Positions 2,751-62,750 of a stretch of DNA of 64,000 bases are shown here, one piece after another; within the stretch, counting starts at the first letter, position 1; every line of letters starts with the position of its first letter. A program made the position numbers and the translations under genes. The DNA is from Patescibacteria group bacterium (GTDB lineage: Bacteria; Patescibacteriota; Minisyncoccia; Phycocordibacterales; UBA1550). Under the pieces are notes generated by a model. The model was not told the origin of the DNA. It saw nothing but the letters and a program-made list of their open reading frames with translations, and ran no database searches. The stretch spans positions 48,920-112,919 of the forward strand of contig JBBTWP010000001.1 of assembly GCA_038062675.1 (NCBI GenBank), written 5' to 3'.

Positions 2751-5116
<2,366 letters not shown>

Positions 5117-5427: not shown

Positions 5428-5721
5428 GTGACGCCAGAAACTTTAAGGCTGATGTTGAAAAGAATAGAGAGAAAAAATATACCAATTGAAGTGCGAGTAA
5501 GAGCTCTCGTTGATCATCTTCATCAAAGTTTTTTAGGGCTTGCAGGTGAAGGTATGCAAGCGAGAACAGGAGAGGAGCTTCGAGAGATGTATGTCAAGGC
5601 CCGAAAGATTGCTAGGGTCGCCTTGCGACTCTATCGGTGGTTTCCTAACTCTGCAGATAAAGAAAGGAACGAACTTTTTCGGACTCTTTTTGATGCAGCG
5701 TCTCGCTCTATTAAACAATAA
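5428..5721 (+). CDS. hypothetical small helical protein (97 aa, GTG start)
   Basis: Own promoter and RBS; no recognisable motif. Confidence 0.45.
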   Translation: MTPETLRLMLKRIERKNIPIEVRVRALVDHLHQSFLGLAGEGMQARTGEELREMYVKARKIARVALRLYRWFPNSADKERNELFRTLFDAASRSIKQ

Positions 5722-34060: not shown

Positions 34061-35851
34061 ATGATGAATTCACAAGAAATTAGACAGCGATTTCTGGCAT
34101 TTTTTGAGAAGCGGGGGCACGCCATTATTCCCTCGTCACCCCTGGTGCCCGAAAATGACCCTTCAGTGCTTTTTAATACTGCAGGTATGCAACCGCTCGT
34201 GCCGTATCTCATGGGTTCACCCCACCCCAGCGGAGCGCGTCTCGCGGACGCACAGAAGTGTGTGCGCACGGGCGACATCGACGAAATCGGCGACAATACG
34301 CATGTCACCTTTTTTGAAATGCTTGGCAATTGGTCACTCGGCGATTATTTCAAAGACGAGTCTATCAAGTGGAGCTATGAACTTCTAACCTCAAAAGAAG
34401 AAGGGTTTGGGCTTGATCCCAAGCGTCTCTATGTGACGGTGTTTGAAGGGAATGATGATGCTCCGCGTGATGAAGAATCTGCTGCTATTTGGAAAAAGAT
34501 TTTTGCAGACGCAGGGATTTCTGGCGAGCGTATTTATTTTTTGCCCGCAAAGTCAAACTGGTGGAGCCCTGGCGACAATGGTCCCTGTGGTCCTGACACG
34601 GAAATGTTTTATGATGTGACGGGTAAACTGACTGATGGTATGACCAAGGAGGAATACCTTGCAGCCGACGAACGACAAGAGGTGGTAGAGGTCTGGAACA
34701 ATGTGTTCATGGAATACGAGAAAAAAGAGGGCAAGGTGGTAGGTAAACTTGCGCAAAAAAACGTAGATACGGGTTCTGGGCTCGAGCGTATCACGATGGC
34801 AATACAGGGCAAGAACAATATTTTTGATACAGATTTGTTTGTGCCGGTTATGGAGAAAATTAAATCGGGGGCAACGCACTACGACGAGCGGGCAGCGCGC
34901 ATTGTTGCTGACCATATTCGTACTGCGGTGTTTATGATTGGGGATGGAGTACGACCATCGAACACTGACCAAGGGTATATTTTGCGCCGACTTCTCCGCC
35001 GCGCTGTGCGCTTTGCGGATGTTCTGGGGATGCCACAAGGGACTCTTGTTGGTCTTGTGCCGGTATTCGCAGAAAAATACCAGGGAGTCTACAAAAATGT
35101 GGGAGCACAAATAGAGCTTGTCACCAATGAAATTCGTGGTGAGGAGGAGAAGTTCCGAAAGACGCTGGAGCGCGGGATAAAAGAATTTTCGAGGATTCCT
35201 CGCGGTGGTAGTGTGAGTGGGGTGCAAGCAAGTACTATGTTTACCACGTTTGGTTTTCCGTTTGAAATGATTACTGAACTTGCAAAAGAGTCAGGGATCA
35301 CCGTTGACGAAGTCGGTTTCCGTGAAGAAATGAAAAAACACCAAGAGCTTTCTCGCGCCGGTGCAGAGCAAAAATTCAAAGGCGGGCTTGCGGATGCAAA
35401 CGAGACGACGGTGATGCTCCACACTTCGACTCACCTCATGCTTGCAGGGTTGCGCAAATATCTCGGTGACCACGTGCATCAAGCGGGCTCAAACATAACA
35501 GTCGAGCGCACACGTTTCGACTTTACGCATCCGGAAAAGGTATCGCGCGAAACACTCGACAAAGTAGAAGCGTATGTGAATGAAGCAATTGCAAAGAAAT
35601 GTGGCGTAACGATTGAGCAAATGCCAAAAGGTGAGGCGCAAAAAAGGGGAGTTGAGGGGAGTTTTTGGGAAAAATATCCCGATGTGGTCAATGTGTATAT
35701 GGTCAAAGCTTCAGATGGCACTGTGTACTCGCAGGAGCTCTGTGGTGGCCCGCATGTCGAAAGTACCGCAACTATCAAGGGTACATTCAAAATCATCAAA
35801 GAAGAGGCAGTTTCGCAAGGTGTCCGTCGCGTGAAGGCAGTCTTGGTTTAA
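34061..35851 (+). CDS. alaS: alanyl-tRNA synthetase, short form lacking C-terminal domain
   Basis: Class II core (FNTAGMQP, GDYFKDE) and editing HxxxH...CGGPHV motifs; only 596 aa. Confidence 0.9.
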   Translation: MMNSQEIRQRFLAFFEKRGHAIIPSSPLVPENDPSVLFNTAGMQPLVPYLMGSPHPSGARLADAQKCVRTGDIDEIGDNTHVTFFEMLGNWSLGDYFKDESIKWSYELLTSKEEGFGLDPKRLYVTVFEGNDDAPRDEESAAIWKKIFADAGISGERIYFLPAKSNWWSPGDNGPCGPDTEMFYDVTGKLTDGMTKEEYLAADERQEVVEVWNNVFMEYEKKEGKVVGKLAQKNVDTGSGLERITMAIQGKNNIFDTDLFVPVMEKIKSGATHYDERAARIVADHIRTAVFMIGDGVRPSNTDQGYILRRLLRRAVRFADVLGMPQGTLVGLVPVFAEKYQGVYKNVGAQIELVTNEIRGEEEKFRKTLERGIKEFSRIPRGGSVSGVQASTMFTTFGFPFEMITELAKESGITVDEVGFREEMKKHQELSRAGAEQKFKGGLADANETTVMLHTSTHLMLAGLRKYLGDHVHQAGSNITVERTRFDFTHPEKVSRETLDKVEAYVNEAIAKKCGVTIEQMPKGEAQKRGVEGSFWEKYPDVVNVYMVKASDGTVYSQELCGGPHVESTATIKGTFKIIKEEAVSQGVRRVKAVLV

Positions 35852-35914
35852 AGGGCATTCTCCTTATTGTTTATGCACCTATCTCATGCCCGAGCATGCT
35901 ATAAGGTGTAAAAA

Positions 35915-35923
35915 GGGGGGGGG
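35915..35923 (+). repeat. G9 homopolymer abutting the -35 box
   Basis: aaaaGGGGGGGGGttgaca. Confidence 0.8.
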
Positions 35924-35952
35924 TTGACAAATGGTTTGCTAGGTGATATACT
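35924..35952 (+). promoter_or_regulatory. consensus sigma70 promoter TTGACA-17-TATACT
   Basis: Perfect -35 at 35924-35929, 17-nt spacer, TATACT at 35947-35952; about 120-nt leader to the ATG at 36074. Confidence 0.65.
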
Positions 35953-35989
35953 ATTAACAATCTATTAGGAGATCTCAATAGAGCACATT

Positions 35990-36022
35990 GCAGACGTTTG
36001 AGTTGTAATGTCTGTTCTTTTA
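35990..36022 (+). promoter_or_regulatory. terminator-like hairpin within the 5' leader (candidate attenuator)
   Basis: gcagacg...atgtctg stem followed by ttcttttaa. Confidence 0.35.
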
Positions 36023-36073
36023 AACCAAATCGACTGGCGATAAAATCAAAGGCGATATTGCGGAGGATTTACC

Positions 36074-36697
36074 ATGAACGTAAGGTTCTATTTTGGCAGC
36101 AGTAAAAAGGCAATTGCAACTTACTTAAAATTGGGCTCAGACGTCCAAGGACATTATGTTGCGAGCGACGCCGACCCAAGAGACCCGACATTTATCTTGC
36201 GTGAGGAATTGCGTGAGAACATCTCTTTCGTTTCATGCCTCGTCCATCACTCCATCGTATCAAAGTGGCGTCTTCCAGACGGTGTTTCTTTTTGCAATAT
36301 CCCAGGGGTGGTGATTATTCATGATGCCCATCGCATCCCCAACTCTGAAGCTATTGTTAAGGCGCCAACGTGGGAGGCTCTATGTTCAGTATTTGAACAG
36401 CTCGAGAATCCAGAGTTGGTATACACTATGCCAAGGTCTAAATATCTCCTTGAACGTGCTTTGGAAAAGCAAATCGCAGCAGAAAAGGTCATTAAGTGGC
36501 TTCAAATTGATTGCAGTTGGATGAGTCACCGCATTGAATCTGATACAAGCCGTGCCTTGTTGACAGAGAAGGAAATTGGTCGGTTGAAGGCAGAAGTCCA
36601 TCAGTTGAAGCAGGATTTGGCAATTGCTAACAAGCGACCGTGGCGACGGAGTGCGAATTTTGCAAAATCGATTTGGAATCGTATGTGTGTAGAATGA
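36074..36697 (+). CDS. hypothetical protein (alpha/beta N-domain plus C-terminal coiled coil)
   Basis: GCGGAGGA RBS; alternating beta-alpha pattern; C-terminal heptad LTEKEIGRLKAEVHQLKQDLAIANKR. Confidence 0.45.
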   Translation: MNVRFYFGSSKKAIATYLKLGSDVQGHYVASDADPRDPTFILREELRENISFVSCLVHHSIVSKWRLPDGVSFCNIPGVVIIHDAHRIPNSEAIVKAPTWEALCSVFEQLENPELVYTMPRSKYLLERALEKQIAAEKVIKWLQIDCSWMSHRIESDTSRALLTEKEIGRLKAEVHQLKQDLAIANKRPWRRSANFAKSIWNRMCVE

Positions 36698-36757
36698 TGG
36701 GGGGAGTATAACCCTCATCCCCATGGCGGCTTTCTTAGGAAGGTCGCCATTTTTTTG
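36696..36757 (+). terminator. tandem hairpins plus T-tract (terminator)
   Basis: atgggg...ccccat then atggcggc...ggtcgccat followed by T7. Confidence 0.6.
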
Positions 36758-61585: not shown

Positions 61586-61601
61586 AGGGTCTATTCTAGC
61601 A

Positions 61602-61623
61602 TACCGCCCCTTGGGGCGGTATG
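61602..61623. other. perfect 9-bp GC-rich palindrome hairpin between dnaB and the SBP gene
   Basis: ataccgcccc-ttgg-ggcggtat. Confidence 0.5.
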
Positions 61624-61690: not shown

Positions 61691-62683
61691 CTACTGTATA
61701 ACCTTAGTAGCAGCACCCAAGGTTTCCTGATTGAGCGGAATTCCCAGTGCTTTGGCGTTAGAAACACTAATGATATATTCAATTTTTTCGGGTTGTTCGA
61801 AAGGAATCACTCCAGGGTTTTCTCCTGAAAGCACTTTGTTTGCTATTCGTGCCAAGGAACGTCCCATTTCGCCATAGTCTGGCCCATATGAAGCAAACGC
61901 TCCACTCTTAATTGCCGTTTCGTCAGGCATAATCATAGGGAGTTTTTCTTCGAGCGATCTCTTCAGGAAAAGGTCTGCCTTTGAAAAGAGCGACCCGTGA
62001 GGGTAGAACAAAATGGCGTCGAATTCCTTTTTTGTAATTTTGTTGAGAACGTTTTGGAGGTCATCCTTGCTCGGGTTTGTGAGTGGAAATTCTGTTAGGG
62101 TGACGCCAAGCTGGGGTGCTTGAGCATTTGCAATAGGTCGTGCCTTTTTTGTGGGCCCGCATGTAGTGTCGTACACAATAGCTATTTTTTTTATGCTCGG
62201 GATTGCTTTTTTGAGCAACTCAATTCGTTTTGGAGTGAGCTCGATGTTTTGTTGAGAAATTCCTGCCAGATTGAAGCCCGAACCTTGGAGTGTTTTAACA
62301 TACCCGTGTTCAACAGGATCACCAAGGGCTGTTAAAACCGCAATAGTTTTAGTTTTAGCAGTTATTTTGAAAGTAGGACCAGAGCTGATGGTTGTGATGA
62401 TGGCGGGGTTTTGAGCAATAGCCTCGTCTATGTATTGATCGAGCTTATCTTTGTCTCCTAGAGCATCTTTATAGGTGATGTTGACATTACCGTCGGGGCG
62501 AGAAGCTTTTAACGTTTTTATAAAATTGTCGAGAAAAATGCCGTACGTTTCACCACCCGGATTAATGACATACACTTGTTGTGCGGTTTGTTTTTTTGTA
62601 ACTGCACCTGTTTGTGACTTATAGATGTAAAATCCACCGCCGGTAAGTAGAAGTATTCCTAATAAAACAAAAAATTTTTTCAT
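61691..62683 (-). CDS. ABC transporter substrate-binding protein (ABC_sub_bind/BMP-like)
   Basis: N-terminal anchor MKKFFVLLGILLL; periplasmic-binding-protein fold pattern. Confidence 0.7.
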   Translation of the reverse strand: MKKFFVLLGILLLTGGGFYIYKSQTGAVTKKQTAQQVYVINPGGETYGIFLDNFIKTLKASRPDGNVNITYKDALGDKDKLDQYIDEAIAQNPAIITTISSGPTFKITAKTKTIAVLTALGDPVEHGYVKTLQGSGFNLAGISQQNIELTPKRIELLKKAIPSIKKIAIVYDTTCGPTKKARPIANAQAPQLGVTLTEFPLTNPSKDDLQNVLNKITKKEFDAILFYPHGSLFSKADLFLKRSLEEKLPMIMPDETAIKSGAFASYGPDYGEMGRSLARIANKVLSGENPGVIPFEQPEKIEYIISVSNAKALGIPLNQETLGAATKVIQ

Positions 62684-62740
62684 GATGCTGATTTATAAAT
62701 ATATCCACTGCTTATAGTAATACTTAAGTCTAACATGCAA

Positions 62741-62750
62741 GGGGGGGGGG
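62741..62750. repeat. G10/C10 homopolymer abutting a minus-strand -35 (TTGCAT)
   Basis: The minus strand reads CCCCCCCCCCttgcat-17-ctataa, upstream of the SBP gene. Confidence 0.75.

Follow-up and report, generated by a model that had tools for sequence, protein, structure and literature searches.

In Helicobacter pylori, T/A tracts that adjoin the -35 elements of sabA and other genes have been demonstrated experimentally to act as rheostats by aligning UP-like elements (Aberg et al., 2014; PMC4081817). In Bordetella, homopolymeric C/G tracts are present in or next to the promoters of fim2, fim3, fimX, and fimN, and a further tract is located 5 nt upstream of the -35 element of bhuR (Gogol et al., 2007; PMC1891110). 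In Campylobacter, Neisseria, and Bordetella, G/C tracts of 9-10 nucleotides belong to the length range that slips frequently (PMC1891110; PMC8355987). Our literature search yielded no paper that ties the Patescibacteria or the Candidate Phyla Radiation (CPR) to homopolymer phase variation. Here we describe a G9 and a G10/C10 tract in the genome of a groundwater Patescibacterium. They represent a real and non-random feature of a known kind, the promoter-proximal homopolymeric tract.

The window, by which we mean the entire stretch of 64,000 nucleotides that was analyzed, belongs to a Patescibacteria MAG that was obtained at the Hainich groundwater observatory, well H41 (ENA contig Hain_H41_01um_R3_22, 265 kb); the encoded proteins carry NCBI locus tags of the AAB552_ series under the name "Patescibacteria group bacterium". 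Judged by a comparison of the AlaRS protein, the closest reference genomes are Yonathbacteria/Paceibacteria-type MAGs, with at most 71% identity. The window has a G+C content of 45% and a GC skew that is constantly positive on the + strand, and a rough gene set of 66 genes leaves 91% of it coding and 8.8% (5,620 bases) intergenic. A crude test recovered a Shine-Dalgarno-like sequence in only 13 of these 66 genes, and in many genes the ATG is preceded by a TAnnnT hexamer at a distance of 5-10 nt (e.g., 17956, 23653, 36836, 15327, and 60185); the scarcity of Shine-Dalgarno sequences and the many -10-like hexamers close to the ATG suggest that leaderless mRNAs are widespread in the window. Three good promoters, located upstream of genes whose starts are at 5428, 39464, and 51292, have the sequence TTTACC-NN directly 5' of TTGAC(A/G) in common (ttttaccgTTGACA, tttacctaTTGACG, and ttttacctaTTGACA), and this sequence may represent a motif that the organism conserves as an extended -35 or upstream element.

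The G9 homopolymer (35915-35923, + strand) is followed, with a gap of 0 nt, by a sigma-70-type promoter (35924-35952, + strand), so that the elements of this site are arranged in the order AAAAA-GGGGGGGGG-TTGACA-aatggtttgctaggTGa-TATACT. The promoter consists of a -35 element at 35924-35929, a 17-nt spacer, and an extended -10 element of the form TG-n-TATACT, with the TG at 35944-35945 and the -10 hexamer at 35947-35952; transcription is predicted to start near position 35959. Relative to this predicted start, G9 extends from about -44 to -36, the position of a proximal UP element, and the A5 run directly 5' of it (35910-35914) lies at -49 to -45. The stop codon of the AlaRS gene is separated from the -35 element by 72 nt. 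Our promoter scan credited the site with 11/12 and with the extended -10 TG, the top score among all upstream regions of the window. The first-pass annotation had reported a G9 tract abutting TTGACA-17-TATACT at exactly these positions (35915-35952) and had regarded this promoter as the strongest-looking one in the window; both observations proved to be correct.

The site-1 promoter is conserved in a relative represented by the locus L009, whose AlaRS is 85% identical and whose overall nucleotide identity amounts to about 83%. The orthologous promoter reads TTGACA-17-TATAAT and is embedded in the same TAGGTGATATA context; the tract is absent, and GGTA (...CCTTGGTA) is found in place of the G9 of the window. 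Since L009 possesses this promoter without the tract, the promoter is older than the tract and works without it, and the tracts are recent gains.

The transcription unit served by this promoter is predicted to begin with a 5' leader of 115 nt (35959-36073, + strand), in which GGAGG is positioned 7 nt before the ATG. Its sole gene codes for a 207-aa ORFan (36074-36697, + strand), and this monocistronic unit is closed by an intrinsic terminator with a 12-bp stem followed by T7 (36723-36757, + strand). The genes 3' of the unit possess their own promoter (TTGAAA-18-TATACT). The leader is 93-97% identical to that of L009, against a background of about 83%. When the leader is considered together with the first ~57 codons of the ORFan (35959-36244), identity to L009 is 90-97%, and the C-terminal third of the protein is nearly unalignable. 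A search of positions 35850-36300 against Rfam returned only a chance snoRNA match at the E-value threshold (E = 9.8), and a search of the whole window returned nothing at the gathering threshold. Folding of the 115-nt leader revealed no excess stability (z = -0.2), and a 22-nt probe from its conserved part had no match in metagenomes. A hairpin followed by TCTTTT is present in the leader at 35990-36021 and could represent an attenuator.

We found a single homolog of the 207-aa ORFan, with 56% identity, in 5.8 billion sequences, and nothing significant in Pfam, PHROGs, PADLOC, or PDB sequences; an AlphaFold2 model built from the resulting two-sequence alignment was unusable (pLDDT 48). Both a signal peptide and a transmembrane segment are absent from the protein. 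This bears on the earlier proposal that the units downstream of both tracts encode envelope or surface proteins. Since the neighboring genes have their own promoter, the envelope label does not apply to the gene under the control of the site-1 promoter, whose product looks like a cytoplasmic ORFan, unlike the products of typical contingency genes. The proposal holds for site 2, where the downstream gene encodes a substrate-binding protein (PF04392) that has a hydrophobic segment at its N-terminus.

The second tract (62741-62750) is a G10 run on the + strand and a C10 run on the - strand, which is the strand of the downstream gene; it lies 12 nt 3' of the CysRS stop codon. Read on the gene strand, the order of this site is GAATA-CCCCCCCCCC-TTGCAT-(18 nt)-TATAAG-(27 nt)-ATG. 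The candidate promoter TTGCAT-18-TATAAG (62711-62740, - strand) abuts the tract with a gap of 0 nt, its TTGCAT hexamer being located at 62740-62735 and its TATAAG hexamer at 62716-62711; 22 nt separate the CysRS stop codon from the -35-like hexamer. By consensus this promoter is weak: TTGCAT agrees with TTGACA at three of six positions and shares only TTG with it, our promoter scanner called no promoter at site 2 (the score remained below threshold), and other weak promoters are located nearer to the ATG of the binding-protein gene. The first-pass annotation had correctly placed a G10/C10 tract next to TTGCAT. Its TTGCAT-17-CTATAA promoter did not stand, as CTATAA matches TATAAT at one of six positions and the scanner was silent; TATAAG at a spacing of 18 fits better, yet the T that is conserved at the last position is missing. 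Both the tract and the TTG-hexamer next to it are thus real, and the promoter, as judged by consensus, is a candidate only. Nor are the two loci strictly alike, as had been suggested, because the sense strand carries G at site 1 and C at site 2. An AAATAAAAA stretch precedes C10 by 7-15 nt; AT-rich spacers often contain runs like this one and like the A5 run of site 1.

The gene downstream of site 2 (61691-62683, - strand) encodes an ABC-type substrate-binding protein of the PF04392 family and is not preceded by a Shine-Dalgarno sequence. It has no adjacent permease or ATPase genes, and the genes for DnaB and RecR come next. Three more PF04392 paralogs are arranged in tandem and followed by a gene for a dCache_1 protein (L097, 3552-8046), and the PF04392 substrate-binding proteins of this genome are orphans that have neither a permease nor an ATPase as neighbor. 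In a relative (L012, 10001-16290), the genes that come after the PF04392 homolog code for dCache, PAS, and histidine-kinase proteins. The PF04392 proteins encoded here may, from such gene neighborhoods, be sensor partners rather than components of transporters. Between the binding-protein gene and dnaB, the minus strand contains a perfect hairpin, ATACCGCCCC-AA-GGGGCGGTAT (61601-61622), which overlaps the TG-TAGAAT -10 element of an apparently leaderless dnaB promoter and could function as a terminator, an operator, or both.

Relatives from unrelated samples keep both gene orders, that of AlaRS and the ORFan and that of CysRS and the binding protein. In L010, a binding protein with 77% identity is encoded downstream of CysRS, and its promoter (TTGCGT-18-TATAAT) has no C tract before it. 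The positional orthology between site 2 and this promoter is ambiguous since automatic alignment pairs a C4 run in the L010 spacer with the C10 of the window. The more distant homologs L011 and L012 are likewise devoid of any tract. A genome-contig search with the substrate-binding protein found no relative. In a different Patescibacterium from the same well (H41-bin144; L045, 8361-8425), C8 and G8 flank a scaffold gap of 10 N just upstream of the AlaRS gene; these runs may form a long hairpin with a G:C stem, at which the assembly was interrupted.

Within the window, G/C runs comprise 13 G6 runs, one C6 run, none of 7 or 8 nucleotides, and then one run each of 9 and 10. G9 and G10 are therefore the only G/C runs of at least 7 in 64 kb, and both are intergenic. 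Analytic estimates from composition models of order 1-5, with the tracts masked, predict 0.05-0.5 runs of at least 9 nucleotides in the window. Among 80 related Patescibacteria loci (1.33 Mb) we counted 515, 66, 6, 4, and 0 G/C runs with lengths of 5, 6, 7, 8, and at least 9, respectively. These run counts in the window and in its relatives demonstrate that the tracts are not compositional noise and are unusual even for this lineage. In being longer than composition predicts and within the slippage-prone range (at least 8-9 G/C), they resemble the tracts of phase-variable promoters.

A third tract was found when we extended the contig by 17.5 kb beyond the window (L097 and L098): a G8 run at positions 2916-2923 of L097, on the same contig and about 5.9 kb before window position 1. 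It consists of G on the + strand, is intergenic, and is separated by 2 nt from the tRNA-Pro(CGG)-like gene that follows it; our promoter scan called no promoter-like site near it. With this run included, we count 3 tracts of at least 8 over about 82 kb for this genome versus 4 in 1.33 Mb of relatives, and 2 of the 3 stand directly before a recognizable or candidate promoter. In the served sequence, 100 N (L097, 2987-3086) replace the 3' part of the tRNA-Pro-like gene. Between these N and position 3310, an element of roughly 75 nt, aaatcccggcatcccgactgcgagtgaagcgagtagtcgggatgagcgagcattgctcgcgYccggatttgaa, is present twice before tRNA-Val; it may correspond to duplicated tRNA 3' ends or to an unusual tRNA-linked repeat.

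Both tracts are reproducible. G9 is identical in all six assemblies (L001-L004, L096, and the window), and C10 is identical in five of six (L005, L006, L008, L098, and L099), the sixth, L007, ending inside the tract; the assemblies that carry the tracts derive from at least five runs or samples. At the consensus level, no indel was detected in any overlap between assemblies despite their SNP micro-diversity, and the length polymorphism among strains or within a population that characterizes phase-variable promoters was not found. The comparison of tract lengths proposed by the first-pass annotation hence revealed no variation, even among SNP-distinct contigs. A fixed tract length and relatives that lack the tract, which is the outcome it had named beforehand as speaking against its own suggestion, is what we observed as far as the assemblies show. 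L007, a Logan contig from run ERR3858136, has its position 1 at window position 62748 and ends in the tract as C8. The position of this break is too precise to be random; heterogeneous tract lengths could have caused it, as could a drop in coverage or errors in the homopolymer.

When we scanned metagenome contigs for G(>=9)-TTGACA, at least 120 loci were obtained. Among the 120 matches listed, 24 (20%) carry TAnnnT at a distance of 16-18 nt, a proportion estimated at roughly 5-8% by chance. In an unrelated organism, two loci that are 97.4% identical (L119, 5508-5522, and L201) differ in having G9 versus G10 directly before TTGACA-17-TATTTT. The junction is followed, at a distance of about 230 nt, by a predicted membrane-protein gene, which, by eye, we take to resemble a gene for a polyprenyl glycosylphosphotransferase. 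The metagenome matches and the G9/G10 pair indicate that the arrangement recurs and can vary; they are not direct evidence on the locus in the window.

The reading that we tentatively prefer, with slightly less than even confidence, is that the tracts are recently expanded simple repeats and that the site-1 tract, by virtue of its UP position, is a candidate analogue tuner of promoter strength. In this scenario, poly(G:C) simple-sequence repeats would have expanded recently in one Patescibacteria species, each in the short non-coding gap that separates a housekeeping aminoacyl-tRNA synthetase gene from the transcription unit following it. At site 1, the tract would have been added directly upstream of a pre-existing strong sigma-70-type promoter. 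G9 would thereby fill the region from -44 to -36, in which the alpha-CTD normally contacts A/T-rich UP DNA, and A5 would be displaced to -49 to -45. A G:C block at the proximal UP subsite is expected to weaken alpha-CTD contacts. The promoter is independent of the tract, and its strength would probably change modestly with tract length: with every G that is added or removed, the upstream A-tract would change its distance from the core promoter and its rotational position, and the effect would be analogue and rheostat-type, not on/off. The same geometry would exist at site 2 only if TTGCAT-18-TATAAG really functions as a promoter. Consensus lengths are fixed (G9 and C10) in the aquifer population that was sampled. 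We infer both the effect of the tracts on transcription and their hypermutability.

Two functional proposals of the first-pass annotation, phase variation and an UP-element-like tuning device, have to be revised. Both tracts lie upstream of the -35 element and outside the -35/-10 spacer; they do not alter promoter geometry in the manner of a phase-variable promoter, and since the -35/-10 spacing is independent of tract length, a classical on/off promoter switch is excluded. UP elements are A/T-rich at -40 to -60 (AAAWWTWTTTT..AAA); the region from -44 to -36 of site 1 is occupied by G9, the opposite of this consensus, and A5 is displaced from the proximal UP position. We also ruled out four other interpretations of the tracts. 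A G-quadruplex cannot arise from one run of 9-10 G, the complementary arm and the T-run needed for a part in intrinsic termination of the upstream synthetase genes are missing, and on the opposite strand the promoter scan matched no promoter, be it antisense or divergent. The tract also does not mark the boundary of an inserted cassette, as L009 has the same gene in the same place without it.

That the tracts are a sequencing or assembly artifact, either a two-color Illumina poly-G product or a chimeric join at a homopolymer, is effectively refuted. Poly-G artifacts are common, several of the metagenome matches are poly-G runs at contig ends, and L007 ends in its tract; however, independent assemblies, which stem from five or more runs or samples, have both tracts in an internal position and at the same length, the flanking gene order is the same in relatives from unrelated samples, and 9-10 nt is far shorter than the assembly k-mer, so that the tracts cannot cause a join. 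The tracts are genuine, and the earlier suggestion that a fixed length and tract-free relatives would point to a homopolymer artifact is excluded by their reproducibility and by the conserved gene order. The presence of two promoter-like sites with the same arrangement in one window had also raised the idea of a lineage-specific architecture, in which a G/C tract 5' of the -35 element would be a recognized element of Patescibacteria promoters. Against this stand about 40 other upstream regions of the window, none of which has a G/C run before its best -35 element, and the 1.33 Mb from 80 relatives, in which no G/C run reaches 9 nucleotides and TTG follows runs of at least 5 in 2.1% of the cases, compared to a background of 2.2%. 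Since the tract is absent from the other promoters of the window and from the orthologous promoters of relatives, a lineage-wide architecture is refuted. The main rival of the tuner reading, a serious possibility that we nevertheless hold in some doubt, is a neutral by-product: strand-biased slippage or mutation would expand G runs that survive where they are harmless, with no regulatory role, and adjacency to a -35 element would follow from the very short intergenic spacers with their few unconstrained bases. All three tracts indeed have their G residues on the + strand, which is richer in G along its whole length, and G6 runs show the same bias (13 to 1); the G8 tract is away from any recognizable promoter, tract lengths are fixed across assemblies, and relatives function without tracts. 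With 22 nt between stop codon and hexamer, abutment is not very improbable at site 2, but at site 1, where 72 nt are available, the tract abuts the -35 element exactly. TTG follows two of the three tracts against a background of 2.2% per side, which corresponds to a nominal probability of about 0.5% in a test that is post hoc. Furthermore, the window contains no G7 or G8 run and hence no continuum of expanding tracts, and from established knowledge of UP elements, G9 in place of the proximal UP region is unlikely to be wholly without effect on a strong promoter.

The tracts might also be true contingency loci, hypermutable in vivo, with G8, G9, and G10 sub-populations that would express the ORFan and the binding protein differently and with assemblies that would report the modal allele. 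We rate this as quite improbable. In its favor, the tract lengths of 9-10 are within the high-frequency slippage range mentioned above, and the unrelated metagenome locus with the same G-tract/TTGACA junction has G9 in one and G10 in the other of two 97%-identical strains. The end of L007 inside the C tract (as C8) would fit a graph branch between alleles of different length, a random break there being very unlikely among contigs of roughly 9 kb, yet a coverage drop or poly-G/C errors could explain this break equally well. The six plus five assemblies, SNP-distinct contigs included, show no consensus length differences at all, and our literature search found no link between the Patescibacteria or CPR and homopolymer phase variation.

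To our knowledge, repeat-based expression diversity has so far been documented mainly in host-adapted pathogens. If the tracts vary and tune, ultra-small, regulator-poor CPR bacteria would use simple-sequence repeats to generate expression diversity at the population level. In its strongest form, which we consider unlikely, this would make the tracts heritable, slippage-driven expression tuners, and no contingency or rheostat locus would have been described before them from the Candidate Phyla Radiation; the tracts would have accumulated specifically in this species, before a lineage-restricted ORFan and an orphan binding protein. A positive result in CPR would be of modest novelty, given that the literature search found no such link. 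As it stands, the locus offers a pair of well-documented promoter-adjacent homopolymers whose function is a candidate only.

Among the systems described, the sabA rheostat of H. pylori is alike in having a homopolymer at the upstream edge of the -35 element and outside the spacer (0 nt from the -35 element at site 1 and 0 nt from the candidate TTGCAT at site 2), with A-runs further upstream, and in the graded effect that would be expected from the alignment of upstream DNA with the alpha subunits of RNA polymerase. A5 at site 1 and AAATAAAAA near C10 at site 2 might correspond to the upstream A-boxes or UP-like elements of sabA-type promoters, whose phasing depends on tract length, but runs of this kind are frequent in AT-rich spacers. 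In contrast to sabA, the tracts described here are composed of G:C and not of T/A, no length variation among strains was seen, and their host is an environmental Patescibacterium, not a host-adapted pathogen. The E. coli UP element shares the promoter coordinates (-38 to -59); its consensus is A/T-rich, whereas G9 is the opposite and probably displaces UP-like DNA. With the poly-G loci of Campylobacter, Neisseria, and Haemophilus, our tracts share their nature as G/C runs (8-13 nucleotides in these loci), the length gap above background, and the small genome; the tracts of these pathogens, however, are mostly coding or located in the promoter spacer, act in an on/off fashion, and have a documented variation that we did not observe here. 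The Bordetella tracts resemble ours as intergenic C/G tracts at promoters that exceed the expectation from composition, that often precede genes for exported or periplasmic proteins, and whose presence or length varies from one related species to another. The tracts of the fim genes, placed between the site of the activator BvgA and the -10 element, alter promoter geometry and are polymorphic among strains, whereas the tract described here is located upstream of the -35 element, has no known activator associated with it, and is of fixed length in the sampled population.
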